Source: Eledone cirrhosa | Taxonomy: Eukaryota | Reading direction: 5' to 3' | Assembly: GCA_964016885.1 (NCBI GenBank) | Contig: OZ024743.1 | Span: forward strand, 375,720,001 to 375,784,000 | DNA: 64,000 nt | In this document: in pieces, positions 10,346-64,000 of the stretch | Position numbering within the stretch: position 1 is the stretch's first letter | How the letters are laid out: each line of letters opens with the position of its first letter | Made by a program: the position numbers and the translations under genes | Notes under the pieces: model-generated | What the model was told of the DNA's origin: nothing | Seen by the model: only the letters and a program-made list of their open reading frames with translations | The model's database searches: none

Positions 10346-10407
<62 letters not shown>

Positions 10408-10533
10408 GTAGGAGGTGAGTTTTATTGTAGTACAATAAAGCAATGCAGATATCGGATAAGAAGCACTCTACAGTTTGTGGGACTGGAGTATGCATAATAT
10501 AAGATCAAAAGATGGTTAAAGGAGTTCCATATA

Positions 10534-10600
10534 TTTTATTATGCGCATTTCAAAAACAAACATCATCAAACAATAATATTTGTGTTTTCATCAGATAAAA
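10534..10600 (-). ncRNA. Type I hammerhead ribozyme (PLE pLTR)
   Basis: Reverse complement reads UUUUAU-CUGAUGA-[long stem II]-GAAA-UGCGCA-UA/AUAAAA. Confidence 0.8.
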
Positions 10601-10710
10601 CAGGAGAACATGATATGAAGGCTAAAAAACACTTGTTGATAGTGCAGATATGTTGATTTAAAACTGCACTATCAACAAGTGTTTTTTAGCCTTCATATCA
10701 TGTTCTCCTG

Positions 10711-10777
10711 TTTTATCTGATGAAAACACAAATATTATTGTTTGATGATGTTTGTTTTTGAAATGCGCATAATAAAA
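10711..10777 (+). ncRNA. Type I hammerhead ribozyme (PLE pLTR)
   Basis: TTTTAT CTGATGA AAACACAAATATTATTG..TGATGATGTTTGTTTTT GAAA TGCGCA TA ATAAAA. Confidence 0.8.
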
Positions 10778-11100
10778 TATATGGAACTCCTTTAACCATC
10801 TTTTGATCTTATATTATATATATATATATATATATATAGTATTAGTTATACTATTTATGGTTATGTAAACACAAAACCTTAAGCAGTTGTAAGTATTTTA
10901 CACACACCCACTTTAACCTATATCTTTGATTTTTGATTGTACCTATTAATATAAATGTAATCTCGAAGTGTGTACTGCCACTCTAAATTCTGTAATGAAT
11001 GTTGACCCACAATGTTTGAATATGTATCAATGTTTGAATATGTGTTGGTATGTCTCTCGGCTGAAAAGGAGGTCATATAACTGTCCATGCATCAATAAAT

Positions 11101-41000: not shown

Positions 41001-44000
41001 GCTGTACTAGTTTCAAGCTTGTTAGCTATCGTCAGCAACGTATACCTTCCTGCCAGATTGTTGAACGTATATACTTACCTTATGCATATTAACGGCTGAG
41101 TAGCCCAATTTGCATATCTAGTGGGTTAATCGGCCGGGTGCACCGAAAGCGATAAACGAAAAAAAATGAAACGATATTTCATTTCCCACTCTTAGTACGG
41201 CTGTTACTTAAATATAAGTATGTACACGTACATACATATATGTATACTGACGTACAGTAGTATGTATATACATATATATATATATACATACATGCACACA
41301 TATATATATGCACGTATGGATTCACCGAACATTTATTATAATGCTCGGTGTGTTTGTAAACAAACATCCCGTATTAAGCCGTAGTGTCTAGCAACCACCG
41401 TTGCTCGTTTGTTCAACACTGACAAAAGAACGCTGTACTAGTTTCAAGCTTGCTAGCTATCGTCAGCAACGTATACCTTCCTGCCAGATTGTTGAACGTA
41501 TATACTTACCTTATGCATATTAACGGCTGAGTAGCCCAATTTGCATATCAAGTGGGTTAATCGGCCGGGTGCACCGAAAACGATAAACGGAATAAATGAA
41601 ACGATATTTCATTTACCACTCTTAGTACGGCTGTTACTTAAATATAAGTATGTACACGTACATACATATATGTATACCGACGTACAGTAGTATGTATATA
41701 TATATATATATATATACATACTTGCACACATATATATATGCACGTATGGATTCACCGAACATTTATTATAATGCTCGGTGTGTTTGTAAACAAACATCCC
41801 GTATTAAGCCGTAGTGTCTAGCAACCACCGTTGCTCGTTTGTTCAACACTGACAAAGGAACGCTGTACTAGTTTCAAGCTTGTTAGCTATCGTCAGCAAA
41901 GTATACCTTCCTGCCAGATTGTTGAACGTATATACTTACCATATGCATATTAACGGCTGAGTAGCCCAAATTGCATATCGAGTGGGTTAATCGGCCGGGT
42001 GCACCGAAAACGATAAACGGAAAAAATGAAACGATATTTCATTTCCCACTCTTAGTACGGCTGTTACTTAAATATAAGTATGTACACGTACATACATATA
42101 TGTATACCGACGTACAGTAGTATGTATAAATATATATATATATATACATACATGCACACATATATATATGCACGTATGGATTCACCGAACATTTATTATT
42201 ATGCTCGGTGTGTTTGTAAACAAACATGCCGTATTAAGCCGTAGTGTCTAGCAACCACCGTTGCTCGTTTGTTCAACACTGAAAAAGGAACGCTCTACTA
42301 GTTTCAAGCTTGTTAGCTATCGTCAGCAACGTATACCTTCCTGCCAGATTGTTGAACGTATATACTTACCTTATGCATATTAACGGCTGAGTAGCCCAAT
42401 TTGCATATCGAGTGGGTTAATCGGCCGGGTGCACCGAAAACGATAAACGGAAAAAATGAAACGATATTTCATTTCCCACTCTTAGTACGGCTGTTACTTA
42501 AATATAAGTATGTACACGTACATACATATATGTATACCGACGTACAGTAGTATGTATATATATATATATATATATACACATACATGCACACATATATATA
42601 TGCACGTATGGATTCACCGAACATTTATTATAATGCTCGGTGTGTTTGTAAACAAACATGACGTATTAAGCCGTAGTGTCTAGCAACCACCGTTGCTCGT
42701 TTGTTCAACACTGACAAAGGAACGCTGTACTAGTTTCAAGCTTGTTAGCTATCGTCAGCAACGTATACCTTCCTGCCAGATTGTTGAACGTATATACTTA
42801 CCTTATGCATATTAACGGCTGAGTAGCCCAATTTGCATCTCGAGTGGGTTAATTGGCCGGGTGCACCGAAAACGATAAACGGAAAAAATGAAACGATATT
42901 TCATTTCCCACTCTTAGTACGGCTATTACTTAAATATAAGTATGTACACGTACATACATATATGTATACCGACGTACAGTAGTATGTATATATATATATA
43001 TATACATATATGCACACATATATATATGCACGTATGGATTCACCGAACATTTATTATAATGCTCGGTGTGTTTGTAAACAAACATCCCGTATTAAGCCGT
43101 AGTGTCTAGCGATCACCGTGGCTCGTTTGTTCAACACTGACAAAGGAACGCTGTACTAGTTTCAAGCTTGTTAGCTATCGTCAGCAACGTATACCTTCCT
43201 GCCAGATTGTTGAACGTATATACTTACCTTATGCATATTAACGGCTGAGTAGCCCAATTTGCATATCGAGTGGGTTAATCGGACGGGTGTACCGAATACG
43301 ATAAACGAAAAAAAATGAATCGATATTTCATTTCCCACTCTTAGTACGGCTGTTACTTAAATATAAGTATGTACACGTACATACATATATGTATACCGAC
43401 GTACAGTAGTATGTATATATATATATATATATATATATACATACATGCACACATATATATATGCACGTATGGATTCACCGAACATTTATTATAATGCTCG
43501 GTGTGTTTGTAAACAAACATCCCGTATTAAGCCGTAGTGTCTAGCAACCACCGTTGCTCGTTTGTTCAACACTGACAAAGGAACGCTGTACTAGTTTCAA
43601 GCTTGCTAGCTATCGTCAGCAACGTATACCTTCCTGCCAGATTGTTGAACGTATATACTTACGTTATGCATATTAACGGCTGAGTAGCCCAATTTGCATA
43701 TCGAGTGGGTTAATCGGCCGGGTGCACCGAAAACGATAAACGGAATAAATGAGACGATATTTCATTTCCCACTCTTAGTACGGCTGTGACTTAAATATAA
43801 GTATGTACACGTACATAAATATATGTATACCGACGTACAGTAGTATGTATATATATATATATATATACATACATGCACACATATATATATGCACGTATGG
43901 ATTCACCGAACATTTATTATAATGCTCGGTGTGTTTGTAAACAAACATGCCGTATTAAGCCGTAGTGTCTAGCGATCACCGTGGCTCGTTTGTTCAACAC

Positions 44001-47000
44001 TGACAAAGGAACGCTGTACTAGTTTCAAGCTTGTTAGGTTATCGTCAGCAACGTATACCTTCCTGCCAGATTGTTGAACGTATATACTTACCTTATGCAT
44101 ATTAACGGCTGAGTAGCCCAATTTGCATATCGAGTGGGTTAATCGGCCGGGTGCACCGAAAACGATAAACGGAAAAAATGAGACGATATTTCATTTCCCA
44201 CTCTTAGTACGGCTGTTACTTAAATATAAGTATGTACACGTACATAAATATATGTATACCGACGTGCAGTAGTATGTATATATATATATATACATACATG
44301 CACACATATATATATGCACGTATGGATTCACCGAACATTTATTATAATGCTCGGTGTGTTTGTAAACAAACATGCCGTATTAAGCCGTAGTGTCTAGCGA
44401 CCACCGTTGCTCGTTTGTTCAACACTGACAAAGGAACGCTGTACTAGTTTCAAGCTTGTTAGGTTATCGTCAGCAACGTATACCTTCCTGCCAGATTGTT
44501 GAACGTATATACTTACCTTATGCATATTAACGGCTGAGTAGCCCAATTTGCATATCGAGTGGGTTAATCGGCCGGGTGCAACGAAAACGATGAACGGAAA
44601 AAATGAAACGATATTTCATTTCCCACTCTTGGTACGGCTGTTACTTAAATATAAGTACGTACACGTACATACATATATGTATACCGACGTACAGTAGTAT
44701 GTATATATATATATATATATATACATACATGCACACATATATATATGCACGTATGGATTCACCGAACATTTATTATAATGCTCGGTGTGTTTGTAAACAA
44801 ACATCCCGTATTAAGCCGTAGTGTCTAGCAACCACCGTTGCTCGTTTGTTCAACACTGACAAAGGAACGCTGTACTAGTTTCAAGCTTGTTAGCTATCGT
44901 CAGCAACGTATACCTTCCTGCCAGATTATTGAACGTATATACTTACCTCATGCATAGTAACGGCTGAGTAGCCCAATTTGCATATCGAGTGGGTTAATCG
45001 GCCGGGTGCACAGAAAACGATAAACGGCAAAAAATGAAACGATATTTCATTTCCCACTCTTAGTACGGCTGTTACTTAAATATAAGTATGTACACGTACA
45101 TACATATATGTATACCGACGTACAGTAGTATGTATATATATATATATATATATACATACATGCACACATATATATATGCACGTATGGATTCACCAAACAT
45201 TTATTATAATGCTCGGTGTGTTTGTAAACAAACATGCCGTATTAAGCCGTAGTGTCTAGCAACCACCGTTGTTCGTTTGTTCAACACTGACAAAGGAACG
45301 CTGTACTAGTTTCAAGCTTGTTAGCTATCGTCAGCAACGTATACCTTCCTGCCAGATTGTTGAACGTATATACTTGCCTTATGCATGTTAACGGCTGAGT
45401 AGCCCAATTTGCATATCGAGTGGGTTAATCGGCCGGGTGCACCGAAAACGATAAACGGAAAAAATAAAACGATATTTCATTTCCCACTCTTAGTACGGCT
45501 GTTACTTAAATATAAGTATGTACACGTACATACATATATGTATACCGACGTACAGTAGTATGTATATGTATATATATATATATATATACATGCACACATA
45601 TATATATGCACGTATGGATTCACCGAACATTTATTATAATGCTGGGTATGTTTGTAAACAAACATCCCGTATTAAGCCGTAGTGTCTAGCAACCACCGTT
45701 GCTCGTTTGTTCAACACTGACAAAGGAACGCTGTACTAGTTTCAAGCTTGTTAGCTATCGTCAGCAACGTATACCTTCCTGCCAGATTGTTGAACGTATA
45801 TACTTACCTTATGCATATTAACGGCTGAGTAGCCCAAATTGCATATCGAGTGGGTTAATCGACCGGGTGCACCGAAAACGATAAACGGAAAAAATGAAAC
45901 GATATTTCATTTCCCACTCTTAGTACGGCTGTTACTTAAATATAAGTATGTACACGTACATACATATATGTATACCGACGTACAGTAGTATGTATATATA
46001 TATACATACATGCACACATATATATATGCACGTATGGATTCACCGAACATTTATTATAATGCTCGGTGTGTTTGTAAACAAACATGCCGTATTAAGCCGT
46101 AGTGTCTAGCAACCACCGTTGCTCGTTTGTTCAACACTGACAAAAGAACGCTGTACTAGTTTCAAGCTTGCTAGCTATCGTCAGCAACGTATACCTTCCT
46201 GCCAGATTGTTGAACGTATATACTTACCTTATGCATATTAAAGGCTGAGTAGCCCAATTTGCATATCGAGTGGGTTAATCGGCCGGGTGCACCGAAAACG
46301 ATAAACGGAAGAAATGAAACGATATTTCATTTACCACTCTTAGTACGGCTGTTACTTAAATATAAGTATGTACACGTACATACATATATGTATACCGACG
46401 TACAGTAGTATGTATATATATATATATATATATATACATACATGCACACATATATATGCACGTATGGATTCACCGAACATTTATTATAATGCTCGGTGTG
46501 TTTGTAAACAAACATCCCGTATTAAGCCGTAGTGTCTAGCAACCACCGTTGCTCGTTTGTTCAACACTGACAAAGGAACGCTGTACTAGTTTCAAGCTTG
46601 TTAGCTATCGTCAGCAAAGTATACCTTCCTGCCAGATTGTTGAACGTATATACTTACGTTATGCATATTAACGGCTGAGTAGCCCAATTTGCATATCGAG
46701 TGAGTTAATCGGCCGGGTGCACCGAAAACGATAAACGGAAAAAATGAAACGATATTTCATTTCCCACTCTTAGTACGGCTGTTACTTAAATATAAGTATG
46801 TACACGTACATACATATATGTATACCGACGTACAGTAGTATGTATATATATATATATATATACATACATGCACACATATATATATGCACGTATGGATTCA
46901 CCGAACAATTATTATAATGCTCGGTGTGTTTGTAAACAAACATCCCGTATTAAGCCGTAGTGTCTAGCAACCACCGTTGCTCGTTTGTTCAACACTGACA

Positions 47001-50000
47001 AAGGAACGCTGTACTAGTTTCAAGCTTGTTAGCTATCGTCAGCAACGTATACCTTCCTGCCAGATTGTTGAACGTATATACTTACCTTATGCATATTAAC
47101 GGCTGAGTTGCCCAATTTGCATATCTAGTGGGTTAATCGGCCGGGTGCACCGAAAGCGATAAACGAAAAAAAATGAAACGATATTTCATTTCCCACTCTT
47201 AGTACGGCTGTTACTTAAATATAAGTATGTACACGTACATACATATATGTATACTGACGTACAGTAGTATGTATATACATATATATATATATACATACAT
47301 GCACACATATATATATGCACGTATGGATTCACCGAACATTTATTATAATGCTCGGTGTGTTTGTAAACAAACATCCCGTATTAAGCCGTAGTGTCTAGCA
47401 ACCACCGTTGCTCGTTTGTTCAACACTGACAAAAGAACGCTGTACTAGTTTCAAGCTTGCTAGCTATCGTCAGCAACGTATACCTTCCTGCCAGATTGTT
47501 GAACGTATATACTTACCTTATGCATATTAACGGCTGAGTAGCCCAATTTGCATATGGAGTGGGTTAATCGGCCGGGTGCACCGAAAACGATAAACGGAAT
47601 AAATGAAACGATATTTCATTTACCACTCTTAGTACGGCTGTTACTTAAATATAAGTATGTACACGTACATACATATATGTATACCGACGTACAGTAGTAT
47701 GTATATATATATATATATATATACATACTTGCACACATATATATATGCACGTATGGATTCACCGAACATTTATTATAATGCTCGGTGTGTTTGTAAACAA
47801 ACATCCCGTATTAAGCCGTAGTGTCTAGCAACCACCGTTGCTCGTTTGTTCAACACTGACAAAGGAACGCTGTACTAGTTTCAAGCTTGTTAGCTATCGT
47901 CAGCAAAGTATACCTTCCTGCCAGATTGTTGAACGTATATACTTACCATATGCATATTAACGGCTGAGTAGCCCAAATTGCATATCGAGTGGGTTAATCG
48001 GCCGGGTGCACCGAAAACGATAAACGGAAAAAATGAAACGATATTTCATTTCCCACTCTTAGTACGGCTGTTACTTAAATATAAGTATGTACACGTACAT
48101 ACATATATGTATACCGACGTACAGTAGTATGTATAAATATATATATATATATACATACATGCACACATATATATATGCACGTATGGATTCACCGAACATT
48201 TATTATTATGCTCGGTGTGTTTGTAAACAAACATGCCGTATTAAGCCGTAGTGTCTAGCAACCACCGTTGCTCGTTTGTTCAACACTGAAAAAGGAACGC
48301 TCTACTAGTTTAAAGCTTGTTAGCTATCGTCAGCAACGTATACCTTCCTGCCAGATTGTTGAACGTATATACTTACCTTATGCATATTAACGGCTGAGTA
48401 GCCCAATTTGCATATCGAGTGGGTTAATCGGCCGGGTGCACCGAAAACGATAAACGGAAAAAATGAAACGATATTTCATTTCCCACTCTTAGTACGGCTG
48501 TTACTTAAATATAAGTATGTACACGTACATACATATATGTATACCGACGTACAGTAGTATGTATATATATATATATATATATACATACATGCACACATAT
48601 ATATATGCACGTATGGATTCACCGAACATTTATTATAATGCTCGGTGTGTTTGTAAACAAACATGCCGTATTAAGCCGTAGTGTCTAGTAACCACCGTTG
48701 CTCGTTTGTTCAACACTGACAAAGGAACGCTGTACTAGTTTCAAGCTTGTTAGCTATCGTCAGCAACGTATACCTTCCTGCCAGATTGTTGAACGTATAT
48801 ACTTACCTTATGCATATTAACGGCTGAGTAGCCCAATTTGCATCTCGAGTGGGTTAATTGGCCGGGTGCACCGAAAACGATAAACGGAAAAAATGAAACG
48901 ATATTTCATTTCCCACTCTTAGTACGGCTATTACTTAAATATAAGTATGTACACGTACATACATATATGTATACCGACGTACAGTAGTATGTATATATAT
49001 ATATATATACATATATGCACACATATATATATGCACGTATGGATTCACCGAACATTTATTATAATGCTCGGTGTGTTTGTAAACAAACATCCCGTATTAA
49101 GCCGTAGTGTCTAGCAACCACCGTTGCTTGTCTGTTCAACACTGACAAAGGAACGCTGTACTAGTTTCAAGCTTGTTAGCTATCGTCAGCAACGTATACC
49201 TTCCTGCCAGATTGTTGAACGTATATACTTACCATATGCATATTAACGGCTGAGTAGCCCAAATTGCATATCGAGTGGGTTAATCGGCCGGGTGCACCGA
49301 AAACGATAAACGGAAAAAATGAAACGATATTTCATTTCCCACTCTTAGTACGGCTGTTACTTAAATATAAGTATGTACACGTACATACATATATGTATAC
49401 CGACGCACAGTAGTATGTATAAATATATATATATATATACATACATGCACACATATATATATGCACGTATGGATTCACCGAACATTTATTATTATGCTCG
49501 GTGTGTTTGTAAACAAACATGCCGTATTAAGCCGTAGTGTCTAGCAACCACCGTTGCTCGTTTGTTCAACACTGAAAAAGGAACGCTCTACTAGTTTCAA
49601 GCTTGTTAGCTATCGTCAGCAACGTATACCTTCCTGCCAGATTGTTGAACGTATATACTTACCTTATGCCTATTAACGGCTGAGTAGCCCAATTTGCATA
49701 TCGAGTGGGTTAATCGGACGGGTGTACCGAATACGATAAACGAAAAAAAATGAATCGATATTTCATTTCCCACTCTTAGTACGGCTGTTACTTAAATATA
49801 AGTATGTACACGTACATACATATATGTATACCGACGTACAGTAGTATGTATATATATATATATATATATATATACATACATGCACACATATATATATGCA
49901 CGTATGGATTCACCGAACATTTATTATAATGCTCGGTGTGTTTGTAAACAAACATCCCGTATTAAGCCGTAGTGTCTAGCAACCACCGTTGCTCGTTTGT

Positions 50001-53000
50001 TCAACACTGACAAAGGAACGCTGTACTAGTTTCAAGCTTGCTAGCTATCGTCAGCAACGTATACCTTCCTGCCAGATTGTTGAACGTATATACTTACCTT
50101 ATGCATATTAACGGCTGAGTAGCCCAATTTGCATATCGGGTGGGTTAATCGGCCGGGTGCACCGAAAACGATAAAACGGAATAAATGAAACGATATTTCA
50201 TTTCCCACTCTTAGTACGGCTGTTACTTAAATATAAGTATGTACACGTACATACATATATGTATACCGACGTACAGTAGTATGTATATATATATATATAT
50301 ATATACATACATGCACACATATATATATGCACGTATGGATTCACCGAACATTTATTATAATGCTCGGTGTGTTTGTAAACAAACATCCCGTATTAAGCCG
50401 TAGTGTCTAGCAACCACCGTTGCTCGTTTGTTCAACACTGACAAAGGAACGCTGTACTAGTTTCAAGCTTGTTAGCTATCGTCAGCAACGTATACCTTCC
50501 TGCCAGATTGTTGAACGTATATACTTACCTTATGCATATTAACGGCTGAGTAGCCCAATTTGCATATCGAGTGGGCTAATCTGCCGGGTGTACCGAAAAC
50601 GATAAACGAATAAAAATGAATCGATATTTCATTTCCCACTCTTAGTACGGCTGTTACTTAAATATAAGTATGTACACGTACATACATATATGTATACCGA
50701 CGTACAGTAGTATGTATATATATATATATATATATACATACATGCACACATATATATATGCACGTATGGATTCACCGAACATTTATTATAATGCTCGGTG
50801 TGTTTGTAAACAAACATCCCGTATTAAGCCGTAGTGTCTAGCAACCACCGTTGCTCGTTTGTTCAACACTGACAAAGGAACGCTGTACTAGTTTCAAGCT
50901 TGCTAGCTATCGTCAGCAACGTATAACTTCCTGCCAGATTGTTGAACGTATAAACTTACCTTATGCATATTAACGGCTGAGTAGCCCAATTTGCATATCG
51001 AGTGGGTTAATCGGCCGGGTGCACCGAAAACGATAAACGGAAAAAATGAAACGATATTTCATTTCCCACTCTTAGTACGGCTGTTACTTAAATATAAGTA
51101 TGTACACGTACATACATATATGTATACCGACGTACAGTAGTATGTATATATATATATATATATATACATACATGCACACATATATATATGCACGTATGGA
51201 TTCACCGAACATTTATTATAATGCTCGGTGTGTTTGTAAACAAACATCCCGTATTAAGCCGTAGTGTCTAGCAACCACCGTTGCTCGTTTGTTCAACACT
51301 GACAAAAGAACGCTGTACTAGTTTCAAGCTTGCTAGCTATCGTCAGCAACGTATACCTTCCTGCCAGATTGTTGAACGTATATACTTACCTTATGCATAT
51401 TAACGGCTGAGTAGCCCAATTTGCATATGGAGTGGGTTAATCGGCCGGGTGCACCGAAAACGATAAACGGAATAAATGAAACGATATTTCATTTACCACT
51501 CTTAGTACGGCTGTTACTTAAATATAAGTATGTACACGTACATACATATATGTATACCGACGTACAGTAGTATGTATATATATATATATATATATATACA
51601 TACTTGCACACATATATATATGCACGTATGGATTCACCGAACATTTATTATAATGCTCGGTGTGTTTGTAAACAAACATCCCGTATTAAGCCGTAGTGTC
51701 TAGCAACCACCGTTGCTCGTTTGTTCAACACTGACAAAGGAACGCTGTACTAGTTTCAAGCTTGTTAGCTATCGTCAGCAAAGTATACCTTCCTGCCAGA
51801 TTGTTGAACGTATATACTTACCATATGCATATTAACGGCTGAGTAGCCCAAATTGCATATCGAGTGGGTTAATCGGCCGGGTGCACCGAAAACGATAAAC
51901 GGAAAAAATGAAACGATATTTCATTTCCCACTCTTAGTACGGCTGTTACTTAAATATAAGTATGTACACGTACATACATATATGTATACCGACGTACAGT
52001 AGTATGTATAAATATATATATATATATACATACATGCACACATACATATATGCACGTATGGATTCACCAAAAATTTATTATTATGCTCGGTGTGTTTGTA
52101 AACAAACATGCCGTATTAAGCCGTAGTGTCTAGCAACCACCGTTGCTCGTTTGTTCAACACTGAAAAAGGAACGCTCTACTAGTTTAAAGCTTGTTAGCT
52201 ATCGTCAGCAACGTATACCTTCCTGCCAGATTGTTGAACGTATATACTTACCTTATGCATATTAACGGCTGAGTAGCCCAATTTGCATATCGAGTGGGTT
52301 AATCGGCCGGGTGCACCGAAAACGATAAACGGAAAAAATGAAACGATATTTCATTTCCCACTCTTAGTACGGCTGTTACTTAAATATAAGTATGTACACG
52401 TACATACATATATGTATACCGACGTACAGTAGTATGTATATATATATATATATATATACATACATGCACACATATATATATGCACGTATGGATTCACCGA
52501 ACATTTATTATAATGCTCGGTGTGTTTGTAAACAAACATGCCGTATTAAGCCGTAGTGTCTAGTAACCACCGTTGCTCGTTTGTTCAACACTGACAAAGG
52601 AACGCTGTACTAGTTTCAAGCTTGTTAGCTATCGTCAGCAACGTATACCTTCCTGCCAGATTGTTGAACGTATATACTTACCTTATGCATATTAACGGCT
52701 GAGTAGCCCAATTTGCATCTCGAGTGGGTTAATTGGCCGGGTGCACCGAAAACGATAAACGGAAAAAATGAAACGATATTTCATTTCCCACTCTTAGTAC
52801 GGCTATTACTTAAATATAAGTATGTACACGTACATACATATATGTATACCGACGTACAGTAGTATGTATATATATATATATATACATATATGCACACATA
52901 TATATATGCACGTATGGATTCACCGAACATTTATTATAATGCTCGGTGTGTTTGTAAACAAACATCCCGTATTAAGCCGTAGTGTCTAGCAACCACCGTT

Positions 53001-55877
53001 GCTTGTCTGTTCAACACTGACAAAGGAACGCTGTACTAGTTTCAAGCTTGTTAGCTATCGTCAGCAACGTATACCTTCCTGCCAGATTGTTGAACGTATA
53101 TACTTACCATATGCATATTAACGGCTGAGTAGCCCAAATTGCATATCGAGTGGGTTAATCGGCCGGGTGCACCGAAAACGATAAACGGAAAAAATGAAAC
53201 GATATTTCATTTCCCACTCTTAGTACGGCTGTTACTTAAATATAAGTATGTACACGTACATACATATATGTATACCGACGTACAGTAGTATGTATAAATA
53301 TATATATATATATACATACATGCACACATATATATATGCACGTATGGATTCACCGAACATTTATTATTATGCTCGGTGTGTTTGTAAACAAACATGCCGT
53401 ATTAAGCCGTAGTGTCTAGCAACCACCGTTGCTCGTTTGTTCAACACTGAAAAAGGAACGCTCTACTAGTTTCAAGCTTGTTAGCTATCGTCAGCAACGT
53501 ATACCTTCCTGCCAGATTGTTGAACGTATATACTTACCTTATGCCTATTAACGGCTGAGTAGCCCAATTTGCATATCGAGTGGGTTAATCGGACGGGTGT
53601 ACCGAATACGATAAACGAAAAAAAATGAATCGATATTTCATTTCCCACTCTTAGTACGGCTGTTACTTAAATATAAGTATGTACACGTACATACATATAT
53701 GTATACCGACGTACAGTAGTATGTATATATATATATATATATATATATACATACATGCACACATATATATATGCACGTATGGATTCACCGAACATTTATT
53801 ATAATGCTCGGTGTGTTTGTAAACAAACATCCCGTATTAAGCCGTAGTGTCTAGCAACCACCGTTGCTCGTTTGTTCAACACTGACAAAGGAACGCTGTA
53901 CTAGTTTCAAGCTTGCTAGCTATCGTCAGCAACGTATACCTTCCTGCCAGATTGTTGAACGTATATACTTACCTTATGCATATTAACGGCTGAGTAGCCC
54001 AATTTGCATATCGGGTGGGTTAATCGGCCGGGTGCACCGAAAACGATAAAACGGAATAAATGAAACGATATTTCATTTCCCACTCTTAGTACGGCTGTTA
54101 CTTAAATATAAGTATGTACACGTACATACATATATGTATACCGACGTACAGTAGTATGTATATATATATATATATATATACATACATGCACACATATATA
54201 TATGCACGTATGGATTCACCGAACATTTATTATAATGCTCGGTGTGTTTGTAAACAAACATCCCGTATTAAGCCGTAGTGTCTAGCAACCACCGTTGCTC
54301 GTTTGTTCAACACTGACAAAGGAACGCTGTACTAGTTTCAAGCTTGTTAGCTATCGTCAGCAACGTATACCTTCCTGCCAGATTGTTGAACGTATATACT
54401 TACCTTATGCATATTAACGGCTGAGTAGCCCAATTTGCATATCGAGTGGGCTAATCTGCCGGGTGTACCGAAAACGATAAACGAATAAAAATGAATCGAT
54501 ATTTCATTTCCCACTCTTAGTACGGCTGTTACTTAAATATAAGTATGTACACGTACATACATATATGTATACCGACGTACAGTAGTATGTATATATATAT
54601 ATATATATATACATACATGCACACATATATATATGCACGTATGGATTCACCGAACATTTATTATAATGCTCGGTGTGTTTGTAAACAAACATCCCGTATT
54701 AAGCCGTAGTGTCTAGCAACCACCGTTGCTCGTTTGTTCAACACTGACAAAGGAACGCTGTACTAGTTTCAAGCTTGCTAGCTATCGTCAGCAACGTATA
54801 ACTTCCTGCCAGATTGTTGAACGTATAAACTTACCTTATGCATATTAACGGCTGAGTAGCCCAATTTGCATATCGGGTGGGTTAATCGGCCGGGTGCACC
54901 GAAAACGATAAAACGGAATAAATGAAACGATATTTCATTTCCCACTCTTAGTACGGCTGTTACTTAAATATAAGTATGTACACGTACATACATATATGTA
55001 TACCGACGTACAGTAGTATGTATATATATATATATATATATACATACATGCACACATATATATATGCACGTATGGATTCACCGAACATTTATTATAATGC
55101 TCGGTGTGTTTGTAAACAAACATCCCGTATTAAGCCGTAGTGTCTAGCAACCACCGTTGCTCGTTTGTTCAACACTGACAAAGGAACGCTGTACTAGTTT
55201 CAAGCTTGTTAGCTATCGTCAGCAACGTATACCTTCCTGCCAGATTGTTGAACGTATATACTTACCTTATGCATATTAACGGATGAGTAGCCCAATTTGC
55301 ATATCGAGTGGGCTAATCTGCCGGGTGTACCGAAAACGATAAACGAATAAAAATGAATCGATATTTCATTTCCCACTCTTAGTACGGCTGTTACTTAAAT
55401 ATAAGTATGTACACGTACATACATATATGTATACCGACGTACAGTAGTATGTATATATATATATATATATATACATACATGCACACATATATATATGCAC
55501 GTATGGATTCACCGAACATTTATTATAATGCTCGGTGTGTTTGTAAACAAACATCCCGTATTAAGCCGTAGTGTCTAGCAACCACCGTTGCTCGTTTGTT
55601 CAACACTGACAAAGGAACGCTGTACTAGTTTCAAGCTTGCTAGCTATCGTCAGCAACGTATAACTTCCTGCCAGATTGTTGAACGTATAAACTTACCTTA
55701 TGCATATTAACGGCTGAGTAGCCCAATTTGCATATCGAGTGGGTTAATCGGCCGGGTGCACCGAAAACGATAAACGGAAAAAATGAAACGATATTTCATT
55801 TCCCACTCTTAGTACGGCTGTTACTTAAATATAAGTATGTACACGTACATACATATATGTATACCGACGTACAGTAG

Positions 55878-55969
<92 letters not shown>

Positions 55970-57225
55970 CATGCCCGCATATATATATGCACGTATGGAT
56001 TCACCGAACATTTATTATAATGCTCGGTGTGTTTGTAAACAAACATCCCGTATTAAGCCGTAGTGTCTAGCAACCACCGTTGCTCGTTTGTTCAACACTG
56101 ACAAAGGAACGCTGTACTAGTTTCAAGCTTGTTAGCTATCGTCAGCAACGTATACCTTCCTGCCAGATTGTTGAACGTATATACGTACCTTATGCATATT
56201 AACGGCTGAGTAGCCCAATTTGCATATCGAGTGGGTTAATCGGCCGGGTGCACCGAAAACGATAAACGAACAAAAATGAAACGATATTTCATTTCCCACT
56301 CTTAGTACGGCTGTTACTTAAATATAAGTATGTACACGTACATACATATATGTATACCGACGTACAGTAGTATGTATATATATATATATATATACATACA
56401 TGCACACATATATATATGCACGTATGGATTCACCGAACATTTATTATAATGCTCAGTGTGTTTGTAAACAAACATCCCATATTAAGCCGTAGTGTCTAGC
56501 AACCACCGTTGCTCATTTGTTCAACACTGACAAACGAACGCTGTACTAGTTTCAAGCTTGTTAGCTATCGTCAGCAACGTATACCTTCCTGCCACATTGT
56601 TGAACGTATATACTTACCTTATGCATATTAACGGCTGAGTAGCCCAATTTGCATATCGAATGGGTTAATCGGCCGGGTGCACCGAAAGGGATAAATGGAA
56701 AAAATGAAACGATATTTCATTTCCCACTCTTAGTACGGCTGTTACTTAAATATATGTATGTACACGTACATACATATATGTATACCGACGTACAGTAGTA
56801 TGTATATATATATGTATATATACATACATACACACATATATATATGCACGTATGGATTCACCGAACATTTATTATAATGCTCGGTGTGTTTGTAAACAAA
56901 CATCCCGTATTAAGCCGTAGTGTCTAGCAACCACCGTTGCTCGTTTGTTCAACACTGACAAAGGAACGCTGTACTAGTTTCAAGCTTGTTAGCTATCGTC
57001 AGCAACGTATACCTTCCTGCCAGATTGTTGAACGTATATACTTACCTTATGCATATTAACGGCTGAGTAGCCCAATTTGCATGTCGAGTGGGTTAATCGG
57101 CCGGGTGCACCGAAAACGATAAACGGAAAAAATGAAACGATATTTCATTTCCCACTCTTAGTACGGCTGTTACTTAAATATATGTATGTACACGTACATA
57201 CATATATGTATACCGACGTACAGTA

Positions 57226-57294
<69 letters not shown>

Positions 57295-59424
57295 CATGCC
57301 CGCATATATATATGCACGTATGGATTCACCGAACATTTATTATAATGCTCGGTGTGTTTGTAAACAAACATCCCGTATTAAGCCGTAGTGTCTAGCAACC
57401 ACCGTTGCTCGTTTGTTCAACACTGACAAAGGAACGCTCTACTAGTTTCAAGCTTGTTAGCTATCGTCAGCAACGTATACCTTCCTGCCAGATTGTTGAA
57501 CGTATATACTTACCTTATGCATATTAACGGCTGAGTAGCCCAATTTGCATATCGAGTGGGTTAATCGGCCGGGTGCACCGAAAACGATAAACGAACAAAA
57601 ATGAAACGATATTTCATTTCCCACTCTTAGTACGGCTGTTACTTAAATATAAGTATGTACACGTACATACATATATGTATACCGACGTACAGTAGTATGT
57701 ATATATATATATATATATATATACATACATGCACACATATATATATGCACGTATGGATTCACCGAACATTTATTATAATGCTCAGTGTGTTTGTAAACAA
57801 ACATCCCATATTAAGCCGTAGTGTCTAGCAACCACCGTTGCTCATTTGTTCAACACTGACAAACGAACGCTGTACTAGTTTCAAGCTTGTTAGCTATCGT
57901 CAGCAACGTATACCTTCCTGCCAGATTGTTGAACGTATATACTTACCTTATGCATATTAACAGCTGAGTAGCCCAATTTGCATATCGAGTGGGTTAATCG
58001 GCCGGGTGCGCCGAAAGGGATAAATGGAAAAAAAGAAACGATATTTCATTTCCCACTCTTAGTACGGCTGTTACTTAAATATAAGTATGTACACGTACAT
58101 ACATATATGTATACCGACGTACAGTAGTATGTATATATATATATATATACATACATGCACACATATATATATGCACGTATGGATTCACCGAACATTTATT
58201 ATAATGCTCGGTGTGTTTGTAAACAAACATCCCGTATTAAGCCGTAGTGTCTAGCAACCACCGTTGCTCGTTTGTTCAACACTGACAAAGGAACGCTGTA
58301 CTAGTTTCAAGCTTGTTAGCTATCGTCAGCAACGTATACCTTCCTGCCAGATTGTTGAACATATATACTTACCTTATGCATATTAACGGCTGAGTAGCCC
58401 AATTTGCATATCGAGTGGGTTAATCGGCCGGGTTAATCGGCCGGGTGCACCGAAAGCGATAAACGGAAAAAATGAACCGATATTTCATTTCCCACTCTTA
58501 GTACGGCTGTTACTTAAATATAAGTATGTACACGTACATACATATATGTATACCGACGTACAGTAGTATGTATATATATATATATACATACATGCACACA
58601 TATATATATGCACGTATGGATTCACCGAACATTTATTATAATGCTCGGTGTGTTTGTAAACAAACATCCCGTATTAAGCCGTAGTGTCTAGCAACCACCG
58701 TTGCTCGTTTGTTCAACACTGACAAAGGAACGCTGTACTAGTTTCAAGCTTGTTAGCTATCGTCAGCAACGTATACCTTCCTGCCAGATTGTTGAACGTA
58801 TATACTTACCTTATGCATATTAACAGCTGAGTAGCCCAATTTGCATATCGAGTGGGTTAATCGGCCGGGTGCACCGAAAACGATAAACGGAAAAAATGAA
58901 ACGATATTTCATTTCCCACTCTTAGTACGGCTGTTACTTAAATATAAGTATGTACACGTACATACATATATGTATACCGATGTACAGTAGTATGTATATA
59001 TATATATATATATATATACATACATGCACACATATATATATATGCACGTATGGATTCACAGAACATTTATTATAATGCTCGGTGTGTTTGTAAACAAACA
59101 TCCCGTATTAAGCCGTAGTGTCTAGCAACCACCGTTGCTCGTTTGTTCAACACTGACAAAGGAACGCTGTACTAGTTTCAAGCTTGTTAGCTATCGTCAG
59201 CAACGTATACCTTCCTGCCAGATTGTTGAACGTATATACTTACCTTATGCATATTAACGGCTGAGTAGCCCAATTTGCATATCGAGTGGGTTAATCGGCC
59301 GGGTGCACCGAAAACGATAAACGGAAAAAAGGAAACGATATTTCATTTCCCACTCTTAGTACGGCTGTTACTTAAATATAAGTATGTACACGTACATACA
59401 TATATGTATACCGACGTACCGTAG

Positions 59425-59462
<38 letters not shown>
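34237..59462 (-). repeat. Tandem array of about 59 monomers of ~430 bp, each with a type I hammerhead ribozyme (retrozyme-like satellite)
   Basis: ~430-bp period throughout (for example ORF ends 41367, 41797, 42227), highly similar copies, internal variable (TA)n, and a hammerhead fold in each unit. Copy number is estimated from length, not counted. Confidence 0.95.
36441..36527 (-). ncRNA. Representative monomer hammerhead ribozyme (type I); predicted cleavage between 36466 and 36465
   Basis: Minus strand: GUUCAACA AU CUGGCA GG AAGG UAU ACGUUG - CUGACGA - U AGCU AACA AGCU U - GAAA - CUAG - UA / CAGCGU U CCUU UGUCAG UGUUGAAC. Four consecutive helices in stem I, including G-U pairs. Confidence 0.85.
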
Positions 59463-59466
<4 letters not shown>

Positions 59467-60360
59467 GGAGGTGAGTTTTATTGTAGTACAATAAAGCAAT
59501 GCAGATATCGGATAAGAAGCACTCTACAGTTTGTGGGACTGGAGTATGCATAATATAAGATCAAAAGATGGTTAAAGGAGTTCCATATATTTTATTATGC
59601 GCATTTCAATAACAAACATCATCAAGCAATAATATTTCTGTTTTCATCAGATAAAACAGGAGAACATGATATGAAGGCTAAAAAACACTTGTTGTTAGTG
59701 CAGTTTTAAATCAACATATGAAAAGTGGTTTTAGATTGATGTGTGATATTGGGAAAAATATTTTATTTAGAGAGGGGGGGAAGGATGAAAAGGGAAGGAG
59801 AAGAAAGGGAGAGATGGGTGATAGAGAGAAAGAGATAGTTTTTATAACTGAGAGGAGATATAATTTTTACATAGAGGGGTTGAAAACCGTTGGAAGATAC
59901 TGTATAAACTAAAAATTTTGAAAATTAACGAAGGGAGGATATGTGCGAGGAAAAAATATTTTATTTAGGGAGGAGGATGAAAAAAAGGGGGGAGGAGATG
60001 AGAGTGAAGGTGGAGAGGGAGAGATGGGTGATAGAGAGAAAGAGATAGTTTTTATAACTGAGAAAAAGATATATTGTTTTAATATAGAGAGGTTGGGAAC
60101 CGTTGGAAGATAATGTATAAATTAAAGGAATTTGAAAATTAACGAAGGGAAATTATGTATGAAGATAGAGAGAAAAAAATAATAATTGTGGGTGAATATT
60201 CTAACGTCAAAAGAAGAAATGTATGTATTGTGGCAATTTCAAAATTAGCGAAGAGAAAAATTGTTACGGTTTGTGTGTAGAAGGATTTGAGAAAAATAAT
60301 GTGAAGTTAAAGTTTGTATATTGAATTGATATGTATTAATAATGAGTTCGTTGATAAAAT
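59463..60360 (-). mobile_element. Inverted copy of the Penelope 3' UTR + pseudo-LTR
   Basis: 59463-59765 is the reverse complement of ~60367-60665; ~59780-60352 is the reverse complement of ~63415-64000. Confidence 0.9.
59590..59656 (-). ncRNA. Type I hammerhead in the inverted pLTR
   Basis: Reverse complement of the 60472-60538 motif with about 2 substitutions in stem II. Confidence 0.78.
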
Positions 60361-60471
60361 AAATAAAATATTTTTCCCAATATCACACATCAATCTAAAA
60401 CCACTTTTCATATGTTGATTTAAAACTTCACTATCAACAAGTGTTTTTAACCTTCATATCATGTTCTCCTG

Positions 60472-60538
60472 TTTTATCTGATGAAAACACAAATATTATT
60501 GCTTGATGATGTTTGTTTTTGAAATGCGCATAATAAAA
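60472..60538 (+). ncRNA. Type I hammerhead ribozyme in the Penelope pLTR; predicted cleavage after 60532
   Basis: UUUUAU/AUAAAA stem I, CUGAUGA, ~16-bp stem II with G-U pairs, GAAA, palindromic AUGCGCAU stem III, AUA triplet. Confidence 0.82.
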
Positions 60539-60684
60539 TAAATGGAACTCCTTTAACCATCTTTTGATCTTATATTATGCATACTCCAGTCCCACAAACT
60601 GTAGAGTGCTTCTTATCCGATATCTGCATTGCTTTATTGTACTACAATAAAACTCACCTCCTACATTAACTTGCTCCTTAACGG

Positions 60685-62688
60685 TTGAGCGTTTACTCTC
60701 ATATTGGATACCTTTTGATGGTCCTTCACCTCTTCTTCTACAACATGGATTATTACAACATAACCAATTCAACTAAAGACATTCCTATACCTGGTAAATC
60801 CGAATTCACCAAACTTCTTATTGAAAAAACTGACTCCTTCGTAAGAAGACTTAGATGGACAGCCTATTTCTATGACCAGCGCCTAAAAGGGAACTTTCAT
60901 ACCAAAGAACACAACTTCCTCGATCATCTTTTTAATTCTAGACGAAATCCTCCTTCCAACAAAAATCTAGCACAATTCGAGGAAGAATTAACTAAAATAA
61001 TAAAAAATCTTAAATTCAAGAGATACCCTTACAAAGGACAAGAGCACCTTGTAAATCTCAAGAACACAATCTCTAACCTAAATTCCTCAAAAAATGTTTT
61101 AGTCCACTCTGACAAAACCAATAACCTATATGGTATTTCCAAGGATAATTATAACAACCTTATCCTAAAGGAACTTAGGAAAAAGTATCGTAAAACCAAC
61201 CATGAAAATTTAGAATGCATAAACCTTGAAGCCTATGAGATTATGTCAAAACTTGGCATTGAAAAAAAGACCGAACCATTCCTCCCAAGAACTCCGAGGA
61301 TAAATCTCAAGGATCACAAAAACAATTTTCGCACTGAACTACCTGTTAGATTAATCGCCCCCTCTAAATCTGATCTGGGGGTTGTTAGTAAAGCCATCTT
61401 GGATAGGATTATCCCACAGGTGAGTTCTAATTGCTCTTCTTTAAACCTAAATTTATGGTTTGGTACTTCTGAAGTGATTGGCTGGTTCAACAAATTGGAT
61501 AATAAAAACAAACTAAAATTTATTCAATTCGATATTGCCAGCTACTATTCCTCCATTTCGCCTTCACTTCTCAATAATGCTCTATCTTTCGCACTTAAAT
61601 ATTCTGACATCACCACAGATGAACTTCACATCATCCTCACCGCACGTAAAACCATCCTAGAGTTCAACAACGAATATTGGACCAGAGCCGATACCTCTAA
61701 CAACTTCGACATCACAATGGGAGCATCCGATTCATCCCAATTGACCGATTTAATTGGTATCTTCATTTTGAACTCTTTGAGTCGGAAAATTCCTCAACTT
61801 CGCGGTGGAATTTATCGTGACGATGGACTCTTTACTATCCTAAATTGCAATATAGTTAAACTTAATATTATTAAGAACAATATACGTAATCTCTTTAACC
61901 AACATAACCTAAAAATTGAATTTGATAATAGTATCAAACTAGCTAATTTCTTGGATGTATCTCTTAATCTTGACACTGGCCTATATTACCCTTACCATAA
62001 AAACAATGAGAATCTTAATTATGTTAACTTTAAATCTAACCATCCTACCAATATCAAGAATGCTATAGTTAATAATATTGGAAATAGAATATCTAACATA
62101 TCTTCTAATAAAAACATCTTTGATGCTAACGCCAATTACTATAATAACGCACTTTCTAAAGCCGGCTATCCAGATAAAATCAAATATAATAAAGAAACAA
62201 ATTCTAGGAAAACTTACAGTAGAATAATTAATCATGACCATTCCAATAATTTTAATAAAAGACCTAGATACAAAAACATAATCTGGTATAATGCTCCTTT
62301 CTCCATCTCTATTAATAACAATATTCCTAAATTATTTTTTAGTGCCTTAAATAAATGCTTCCCTCCCTCACATATCTATAGTAAAATATTTAACAAACAC
62401 ACCATCAAATTTTCGTATTCTACATCCTCCAATATTTCCAACATCATCTCTAAACACAACAACAAAATATTAAATACTAAATCTCTTCCTTCCAATATTG
62501 AATTTCATAATAACAGTAATAGTACTCCCGACGTCATTGTAAACCCTAGGCTAATTTCTGTAAACCCAAATACAACGTCAAACACAACTTCGCTAAATGT
62601 TCATAATCCAACTCTAAATCAAGAAACTATTATTCCTTATTATTCCTATCGCAAACAACTTCTCCAATCCAATTCCTTCTATAGATAA
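60685..62688 (+). CDS. Penelope-like reverse transcriptase (YRDD type); true start probably the ATG at 60718 or 60745
   Basis: 667-aa ORF with SDKT, KDHK, VRLIAP, FIQFDIASYYSSI, FDITMG, GIYRDDGL, NFLDVSLNL, SNHP, IIWYNAPFS. Confidence 0.9.
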   Translation: MSVYSHIGYLLMVLHLFFYNMDYYNITNSTKDIPIPGKSEFTKLLIEKTDSFVRRLRWTAYFYDQRLKGNFHTKEHNFLDHLFNSRRNPPSNKNLAQFEEELTKIIKNLKFKRYPYKGQEHLVNLKNTISNLNSSKNVLVHSDKTNNLYGISKDNYNNLILKELRKKYRKTNHENLECINLEAYEIMSKLGIEKKTEPFLPRTPRINLKDHKNNFRTELPVRLIAPSKSDLGVVSKAILDRIIPQVSSNCSSLNLNLWFGTSEVIGWFNKLDNKNKLKFIQFDIASYYSSISPSLLNNALSFALKYSDITTDELHIILTARKTILEFNNEYWTRADTSNNFDITMGASDSSQLTDLIGIFILNSLSRKIPQLRGGIYRDDGLFTILNCNIVKLNIIKNNIRNLFNQHNLKIEFDNSIKLANFLDVSLNLDTGLYYPYHKNNENLNYVNFKSNHPTNIKNAIVNNIGNRISNISSNKNIFDANANYYNNALSKAGYPDKIKYNKETNSRKTYSRIINHDHSNNFNKRPRYKNIIWYNAPFSISINNNIPKLFFSALNKCFPPSHIYSKIFNKHTIKFSYSTSSNISNIISKHNNKILNTKSLPSNIEFHNNSNSTPDVIVNPRLISVNPNTTSNTTSLNVHNPTLNQETIIPYYSYRKQLLQSNSFYR

Positions 62689-63148
62689 CACTAGATCACT
62701 CATTAATAATCTCTCTAATTGCAACTGCCGCATTAAAAATAAATGTCCTCTCAACAACCATTGCCTCGATAAAAACTTAATTTATGAATGTAAAATTATA
62801 ACTCGCACCAATTCCTTCACCTATTTTGGCTCCACTTCCACCGCTTTTAAAGCTCGTCTCTATAATCATCATTCATCTTTCAAATACAAACTTAAAAGAA
62901 CTAACACTGCTCTCTCAGAACTCATATGGTCCTTAAAAGACAAAAACATTAAATATAACATCTTTTGGAAAAAGATTTCTTCTGCATCCTCATACTTGAA
63001 CAGCTCTCTATCTAAAATCTGTAATCTCTGCCTAAATGAAAAATTTTCCATTATCTCTAACCTAGATTCTATAATAAATAGACGCTCAGATTTGTTTTCT
63101 ATCTGCCTGCATAAATTCCATAGAACTTTTCACAAAGTATACAGTTAA
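62642..63148 (+). CDS. Cys-rich linker + GIY-YIG endonuclease of the same PLE, in a shifted frame
   Basis: Manual translation: ...CNCRIKNKCPLNNHCLDKNLIYECKI..TYFGSTSTAFKARLYNHHSSF...TALSELIW...CNLCLNEK...CLHK..VYS* (TAA at 63146-63148). Confidence 0.88.
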   Translation: MPIANNFSNPIPSIDNTRSLINNLSNCNCRIKNKCPLNNHCLDKNLIYECKIITRTNSFTYFGSTSTAFKARLYNHHSSFKYKLKRTNTALSELIWSLKDKNIKYNIFWKKISSASSYLNSSLSKICNLCLNEKFSIISNLDSIINRRSDLFSICLHKFHRTFHKVYS

Positions 63149-64000
63149 TATTCAATTCTTTATCAATTTAGAATCTTTTCTCAAAGGCACATATACATAC
63201 ACCTCTTTAAAATATACCCATCTACCTTACTTTAAAGGGCATTATACACTCTATAATACTCGTTTATTCATTACCCTCATTCTATCTTCTCGTAAAATAA
63301 TATTTGTTTTTGACATTTTGAATATTCATCCGCAATCATTATTATTTTTTCTCTCTATCAAAAATCTTTTTAATCTCAATTTCATCCTTAATTTATTATT
63401 ATTTTTTTTCTCCCCATCGACGAACTCATTATTAATACATATCAATTCAATATACAAACTTTAACTTCACATTATTTTTCTCAAATCCTTCTACACACAA
63501 ACCTTAACAATTTTTCTCTTCGCTAATTTTGAAATTGCCACAATACATACATTTCTTCTTTTAACGTTAGAATATTCACCCACAATTATTATTTTTTTCT
63601 CTCTATCTTCATACATAATTTCCCTTCGTTAATTTTCAAATTCCTTTAATTTATACATTATCTTCCAACGGTTCCCAACCTCTCTATATTAAAACAATAT
63701 ACCTTTTTCTCAGTTGTAAAAACTATCTCTTTCTCTCTATCACCCATCTCTCCCTCTCCACCTTCACTCTCATCTCCTCCTCCCTTTTTTTCATCCTTCC
63801 CCCCCCCCCCTCCCTAAATAAAATATTTTTCCTCGCACATATCCTCCCTTCGTTAATTTTCAAAATTTTTTAATTTATACAGTATCTTCCAACGGTTTTC
63901 AACCCCTCTATGTAAAAATTATATCTCCTCTCAGTTATAAAAACTATCTCTTTCTCTCTATCACCCATCTCTCCCTTTCATCTCCTTCCCTTTTCATCCT

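Follow-up and report, generated by a model that had tools for sequence, protein, structure and literature searches.

The Hydra-type Penelope-like element (PLE) that interrupts a retrozyme-type tandem array in Eledone cirrhosa is most probably a later passenger in the TA repeat of one monomer, and the monomer family was likely spread in trans by the enzyme of a Penelope element, though probably one of another family than this (probability about 0.8). The window, that is the whole stretch analysed, comprises 64,000 nucleotides of contig OZ024743.1 (positions 375,720,001-375,784,000, forward strand) of the 3.0-Gb genome. Extended coordinates carry the window numbering on into the downstream DNA past 64000. 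The family names H1 (the interrupting element), H2, H3, X, Y and N1 and the names of the two end sites, A and B, are labels coined in this analysis.

Which enzyme spreads animal retrozymes is debated. PLEs have been put forward as strong candidates for mobilising the non-LTR retrozymes of metazoans (Cervera and de la Pena 2020, PMC7229834), and animal retrozymes have been argued to be non-autonomous PLE derivatives using PLE enzymes (Li, Clavereau and Pollet 2026, bioRxiv 10.64898/2026.07.22.740005). This proposal has so far rested on coexistence and homology, and we found no published junction-level evidence for the link in the openly readable literature, supplements aside. PLE mobilisation of retrozymes having already been proposed, what is new here is a test of the adjacent element as the partner, which fails, together with a panel of rival enzymes.

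The array totals 67 units, reaching about 73030 in extended coordinates. Its monomer is, as in non-LTR retrozymes, a non-coding tandem unit with one type I hammerhead motif. A pattern scan found minimal type I hammerhead motifs with a palindromic stem III both in the monomers (minus strand) and in the pLTR of the element (plus strand), and the minus strand holds 59 exact-pattern cores among the 67 units. An Rfam search at the gathering threshold gave no hammerhead match in monomers or pLTR, and the predicted folds of the two hammerhead pieces were no better than those of shuffles (z of -0.09 and -1.6). On the left the array borders on (TA)n, at 34236, as had been stated earlier; this end is the site B end of a long arm, and the other end is an inverted arm of 0.7 unit with site A near 73030 in TA. 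The array is bounded like a single two-armed insertion.

The element spans 59462-64241 and splits one monomer at its (TA)n. An earlier note on this DNA, made from the window, had the last monomer halting in its internal (TA)n where an inverted pLTR starts, and this is what we find: the repeat (59429-59462) breaks off at 59462, and the inverted pLTR opens with TGTAGGAGG. The 3' pLTR and the resumption of the array, which that note had suggested looking for beyond 64000, are both present; past 64241 come (TA)n and the right half of the interrupted monomer. Four monomers downstream lies a second H1 copy (65968-70752, extended), with an inversion point and a broken 668-aa frame identical to those of the first; the two ORFs differ at 2 of 2,482 bases. 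The split monomer together with the common inversion point and broken frame points to a single insertion event in an array that was already there and to a tandem duplication of 6.5 kb afterwards. H1 thus entered a pre-existing array, and H1 plus four monomers were later duplicated as DNA.

The description of the element as near-intact holds in part. An ORF with RT and GIY-YIG is present, but relative to the intact copy L073 it carries one extra base near 62637, ahead of the linker and the GIY-YIG domain, so this copy would yield no endonuclease by ordinary translation. Likewise, the element at 10407 has the same (TA)n boundary as had been noted, but it is a two-armed stub flanked by (TA)n on both sides and not a solo pLTR. 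Each monomer was also said to bring a new target site: its (TA)n is indeed the target of H1 here, but the array has fewer TA tracts per 10 kb (19) than its flanks do (27).

Table 1. Features of the array and of the H1 elements (window numbering)
Feature	Position	Strand	Remarks
Two-armed H1 stub in (TA)n	10407..10817	.	10407-10647, minus arm ending at B; 10648-10817, plus arm ending at A; (TA)n both sides
Array left end: the long arm's fixed 3' end (B), continuing into (TA)n	33887..34245	-	
Retrozyme-type tandem array, window part	34236..59428	-	unit ~430 bp
Minimal type I hammerhead motif, last monomer	59163..59206	-	predicted cut between 59170/59169; palindromic stem III; pattern scan
Monomer tail	59317..59375	-	59 nt between fixed 3' ends A (59376) and B (59317) of dispersed copies
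Internal (TA)n of last monomer	59429..59462	.	target of PLE insertion
H1 inverted arm	59462..60370	-	pLTR (ending at site B) and part of 3' UTR
H1 direct upstream pLTR	60360..60666	+	site A 60578, site B 60666, 88-nt tail between
Hammerhead motif in H1 direct pLTR	60472-60538	+	cut predicted after 60532
Short hairpin just 3' of site B	60673..60690	+	candidate protein-binding element
H1 ORF: RT and C-terminal GIY-YIG, Hydra-clade motifs	60682..63148	+	frameshift near 62637 splits off endonuclease part
H1 3' UTR	63149..64021	+	window part up to 64000
H1 3' pLTR	64022-64241, past window	+	ends at site A in (TA)n

Copies of the monomer are both dispersed and tandem, with 9,492 exact matches to its hammerhead motif genome-wide and loci on many contigs. 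For the first 48 Mb of contig C1, 63 places were listed; monomer ends were sampled at 56 of them (the last 7 omitted), giving 57 stretches. Among 100 free 3' ends, duplicates included, 38 lie at site A (unit 226-235), 40 at site B (unit 282-290) and 22 elsewhere, and a TA-rich flank follows 28 of the 38 A ends, 37 of the 40 B ends and 4 of the 22 others. The two fixed ends are spaced 59 nt apart, in (TA)n. With 21 loci added, 44 head-to-head pairs comprise 31 A+B (3 of them duplicates), one B+B, no A+A and 12 with a non-fixed end. When duplicates are removed, L095 and L103 are joined and the position-chosen set alone is counted, pairs with both ends fixed are A+B in 22 of 23 cases (binomial p=3e-6). 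Exact junctions of monomer B with TA number 2,987 genome-wide, compared to 7 at a control TA-like site of the unit.

One explanation for these copies is that the monomer is an ordinary satellite spread by DNA-level events, by a LINE or by a Helitron, its TA ends reflecting microhomology. Long arrays clearly do grow as DNA, as higher-order repeats and the 6.5-kb duplication indicate, and TA microhomology is present at both end sites. Nevertheless, recombination, LINE or Helitron insertion would not be expected to give two fixed ends, so strict a pairing of A with B, or 2,987 junctions at one site against 7 at the other. The fixed ends, inspected for the LINE-type or Helitron-type ends that the earlier note had set against its own proposal, show neither LINE tails nor Helitron-type ends and have the Penelope signature instead, and mobilisation by either was rejected on junction grounds. 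We regard the satellite explanation as largely refuted and highly improbable. The monomer carries the PLE insertion signature, a pattern that is not accounted for by a LINE, a Helitron or spread purely as DNA. Two fixed ends with A/B pairing on a non-coding unit suggest that a Penelope enzyme likely mobilises the dispersed monomers; the 22 of 100 ends at neither site count against this. Seen on non-coding copies in their thousands, the strict one-A-one-B rule amounts to evidence of the mechanistic-footprint kind.

The same rule governs H1. Its copies stop at pLTR position 219 (A) or 307 (B), and one A plus one B end was found in 15 of 15 scorable loci (from 20 intact-ORF loci, 5 of which are without a scorable second arm). 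Among 29 pLTR-selected loci, 13 of 14 two-armed copies are A+B, the exception (L039) being B+B. This pairing corresponds to the known PLE 'tail at one end' and matches the two internal RT start sites seen in vitro (PMC11167929). Genome-wide there are 7,402 exact junctions of an H1 end with TA and none in the reversed control, which bears out the claim that the family targets TA repeats. The family is very young: 131 scored matches are 99-100 % identical, about 50 of them with the full 821-aa frame.

The intact H1 protein (copy L073) is encoded by a single ORF of 821 aa, with RT and, at its C terminus, GIY-YIG. Its GIY-YIG match in Pfam falls below the cut-off (E=0.013), the 648-aa part of the ORF has no match to a Pfam RT family, and a PDB profile search gave no significant match; 19 protein homologs were found at 30-39 % identity. 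The motifs are DKT replacing DKG, a CxCX5C linker, and CxxC and CxH around conserved E and N, with no CCHH. These appear to match the description of the Hydra clade, an assignment made by described features. Hydra-clade PLEs as described by Craig et al. (2021, PMC8557442) likewise have a single ORF with C-terminal GIY-YIG, DKT, CxCX5C, CxxC and CxH, and they share with H1 a hammerhead in the pLTR, an inverted 5' arm, a tail at one end and the (TA)n target, in which almost all families of the clade insert; H1 has every one of these features. It differs in having RWT for RWK at the N-terminal motif (RWR in H2 and H3, RWK in most homologs), a unit of about 3.6 kb where the clade is generally below 3 kb, a tail of 88 nt where 30-40 bp is described for PLEs, and a very high copy number (PMC8557442).

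The earlier note had gone further and proposed a two-component system in which the RT/GIY-YIG of this element copies monomer RNA into (TA)n. A PLE enzyme as mobiliser is the part that stands as likely, given the A/B signature and the (TA)n insertion; the choice of H1 as partner is not supported, H1 being nested later, frameshifted in this copy, not enriched, and provided with a tail of 88 nt compared to 59 in the monomer. We consider a partnership with H1 decidedly unlikely. H1 and the monomer do have the target and the two-ended rule in common, as well as seven similar bases at site A. Their ages overlap, and H1 and H2, both very young, are a better fit than Y for the youngest of the retrozyme copies. 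Against this, H2, H3, Y and X have an identical target and rule, and H1 was nested after the array had formed. Just 3' of site B a hairpin with an identical closing stem is present in H1, H2 and H3, and no such hairpin is seen at the B site of the monomer. These traits, tail length and hairpin, would lean away from partnership. Tail length may, however, follow the RNA fold and not the protein, in which case H1 would perhaps survive the comparison of tails.

Both the monomer and H1 prefer (TA)n genome-wide, as had been predicted, but H1 is not enriched near retrozyme copies. Family ends at the 57 retrozyme stretches are H2 in 10, Y in 6, H3 in 5, X in 5 and H1 in 3, and the fraction for H1 is 4 of 19 at H2/H3 loci. 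The neighbours of retrozyme ends across a TA tract are H2 (3), Y (3), H3 (1) and X (1), with none from H1; among 49 loci selected for H1, one such H1-retrozyme pair was found. Near the 63 listed retrozyme loci, H1 ends number 1 within 2 kb (0.29 expected, p=0.25), 3 within 5 kb (0.73 expected, p=0.04, uncorrected) and 4 within 10 kb (1.45 expected). This weak proximity counts in favour of H1 but can be explained by shared TA-rich regions. Two further large retrozyme arrays (39 and 26 kb) contain no internal PLE. One of them, the C12 array, has an older H1 stub across a TA tract at its end, again in favour of H1; the other is flanked by an H3 stub on one side, while some 100 bp from its opposite end lies a piece resembling H1 at 79 %. 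H1 occurs no more often beside retrozyme copies than beside other PLEs, and we found no specific association. The caveat in the earlier note, that adjacency could reflect a common target preference, explains the adjacency: it is ordinary nesting and unfit for naming the partner.

Sequence comparison gave no closer tie. Consistent with the earlier statement that monomer and pLTR lack homology, none of 21 plus 2 shuffle tests of the monomer against the pLTRs of H1, H2, H3, X and Y was significant after correction; the best of the 21 was H1 (p=0.013, non-significant after correction), and the match to Y (p=0.08) was out of register. Homology, hairpin and tail-length comparisons revealed no 3'-end sequence or structure common to H1 and the monomer. 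No H1 sequence is joined at any of 44 unpaired monomer 5' junctions, and no monomer chimera with H1 was found. Single chimera-like cases involve family W (L046), H2 (L156) and other Hydra-like ends (L148 and L092) and are explicable by deletion or nested insertion.

At least five TA-targeting Penelope-type families besides H1 coexist in the genome. H2 (784 aa, copies 98-100 % identical) and H3 (713 aa) are of Hydra type, follow the two-ended rule and are 37 % identical to H1. X also targets TA with the two-ended rule, and an ORF was looked for in it and not found; N1 has a single end in 8 of 8 copies inspected. Y is a non-Hydra PLE with frames up to 1005 aa and a C-terminal endonuclease with a CX4CxxC linker. 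Beyond the named families there are dozens of TA-anchored end clusters. Tail lengths are 88 nt in H1, 80 in H2, 87 in H3, 60 in Y, 64 in X and 59 in the monomer. An automated tail scan is confounded by internal TA tracts; from it only clusters matching known ends were used, and the scan's own values are about 2 nt too high.

If tail spacing were a fingerprint of the enzyme, Y would be the partner, a reading that we hold tentatively and well below even odds. Y targets TA, its two ends are 60 nt apart, its A+B pairing is seen in 2 loci, and its frames are long. Y ends at retrozyme loci (6 of 57, with the 3 across-tract pairs) fit as well, but they are equally common at H1 loci (8 of 49, also with 3 across-tract pairs). 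Further points against Y are that it has no significant homology to the monomer and that short tails also occur in X and in unsampled families. Divergence is not on its side either: tail divergence to the medoid is 0.012 in H1 (n=6), 0.017 in the monomer (n=60) and 0.033 in Y (n=14), and the 12 sampled Y ORFs are mostly 92-98 % identical. By these values H1 and the monomer would overlap in age, whereas the Y copies in the sample appear to predate the youngest monomers. A partner family outside our sample is a possibility we take seriously, though at somewhat less than even odds, and service by several families seems rather unlikely. A search for Y read-through junctions gave mostly mutated TA junctions.

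Alternatively, the monomer may be the orphan pLTR of an unsampled PLE family, the dispersed copies being its truncated products, so that the array would be a pLTR-derived satellite of the kind put forward in the 2026 preprint. The anatomy of the monomer (hammerhead, then A, tail and B) is pLTR-like, and the dozens of other TA-anchored end families in the genome leave room for such a source. In Xenopus, 24 of 57 retrozyme families are reported to have homology to known elements, which number 22 and include 21 PLEs (bioRxiv 10.64898/2026.07.22.740005). The annotated arms, however, extend into further monomers and not into an upstream ORF, and multi-unit arms are common; in one copy, L148, which is old and fragmented, the 3' side is joined to part of a Hydra ORF. 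We judge this origin improbable, and a pLTR origin of the monomer is in itself compatible with copying in trans by a PLE enzyme other than that of H1.

For such copying in trans we propose the following steps. The GIY-YIG domain would cut both strands of (TA)n, as suggested by the lizard PLE in vitro. Each cut end would then prime reverse transcription at one of two fixed internal RNA sites, A or B, possibly with the aid of short TA microhomology, and the resulting pair of 5'-truncated cDNAs would be joined head to head. The distance from the predicted ribozyme cut to the sites on its 3' side is 228 nt for A and 287 nt for B, and monomer arms cross the predicted cut site up to several times (L138, L140 and L095/L103). 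As the sites are 3' of the cut and the arms run through it, the template would be an uncut multimer or a re-ligated circle. Long arrays may then expand as DNA by unequal exchange. A more specific version, which we offer as speculative and doubtful, is that a Penelope dimer, starting once per fixed site and probably moving round an RNA circle, copies a ribozyme repeat that resembles none of the sampled Penelope ends. The site spacing would then be a fingerprint of the enzyme, by which a retrozyme could be matched to its partner (here the non-Hydra Y) among many competing TA-targeting families.

These steps can be compared with the Poseidon element of Anolis (PAc), for which in vitro work showed that two internal RT start sites define the tail, that both target strands are cut and extended at an AT-rich target, and that the reaction needs RNA lying 3' of the start sites (Frangieh et al. 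2024, PMC11167929). PAc belongs to another clade and its start site is reported to be non-homologous to the target, whereas all ends here have short TA microhomology. No strand difference in start-site use was seen in vitro (PMC11167929), whereas nearly every genomic pair here combines an A end with a B end.

The monomer resembles the metazoan non-LTR retrozymes of PMC7229834 in its non-coding tandem units with one type I hammerhead each, low GC, range from dimers to ~60-mers, thousands of copies and coexisting PLEs. It differs in its unit of 430 bp (170-400 nt in the described retrozymes) and in its hammerhead, which is minimal and of PLE type; for its fixed A/B ends, its head-to-head arms and its TA targeting we found no counterpart in the passages of that paper on these elements. 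The 2026 preprint draws on co-occurrence and pLTR homology, mainly in vertebrates, and we found no analysis of insertion junctions in its text, whereas our data consist of a junction signature with no significant homology to the sampled pLTRs (bioRxiv 10.64898/2026.07.22.740005). Non-autonomous Chlamys elements such as MRC1 (PMC8557442) are also non-coding, PLE-dependent and present as multicopy head-to-tail insertions. They generally share 3' ends with autonomous families and are described there as being without canonical hammerheads; no such shared end was found for the monomer.

Since intact candidate enzymes differ in tail spacing (H1, H2, H3 and Y), the choice of partner and the rule of RT start sites are testable in one in vitro panel. 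At the other end of the copies, 12 of 100 monomer 5' starts cluster at unit 398-409, probably an effect of selection and alignment length.

The long arm of the retrozyme array, that is, of the tandem hammerhead-bearing monomers, ends at site B, one of the two fixed 3' ends of the monomer, in all three large arrays that we compared. Within the window array, a deleted monomer (231 bp) is found twice, at 35185-35651 and 39720-40186, and this recurrence at 4,535 bp indicates a higher-order repeat. An older, diverged monomer subfamily (L182:1600-3100; 69-83 % identity) keeps its 3' end at the other fixed position, site A, in TA. At L046:1300-1460 a retrozyme arm is fused directly to the end of W, an unrelated TA-anchored family, with no TA between them, a junction that may reflect a template switch or a deletion.

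Positions of the three large arrays and of elements noted in the window
Feature	Position	Strand	Long arm
Large array 1	window array		39 kb, anchored at B
Large array 2	G000:C12:20.397-20.436 Mb		39 kb, anchored at B
Large array 3	G000:C21:33.956-33.982 Mb		25 kb, anchored at B
Decayed PLE, clade other than that of H1; RT and GIY-YIG pieces	window 17833-19459	-	
LINE-like RT fragment	window 14002-16146	+	
LINE-like RT fragment	window 23370-24323	-	
LINE-like RT fragment	window 28491-29186	-	
Broken-up ORFs, Helitron-like	window 29514-32102	+	

Between the duplicated H1 Penelope-like elements (PLE) nested in the array, the pLTRs carry 5/308, 4/307 and 2/220 substitutions and the ORF 2/2482, a roughly tenfold higher divergence in the pLTRs (window 59462-60666 versus 65968-67178 in the numbering continued downstream). 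This excess may be due to inverted-repeat mutation or to sequencing error.

The three LINE-like fragments have motifs that we take to be RTE-like. The two minus-strand fragments have a common 3' end running into (TA)n, and this 3' end recurs in 9 loci. The broken-up ORFs, which resemble a Helitron Rep/helicase in their motifs, stop about 2 kb short of the array and no connection to it was seen.

Relatives of the decayed PLE share 79-92 % identity with it. N1, a younger family at 73-75 % identity, targets (TA)n, contains a minimal hammerhead and has a single fixed end in 8/8 of the copies listed. Reading by eye at loci L123, L131 and L122, we also noticed hammerhead-like motifs with an apparent U3-A8 type core in families H2 and X, and what may be a further variant core in H3.
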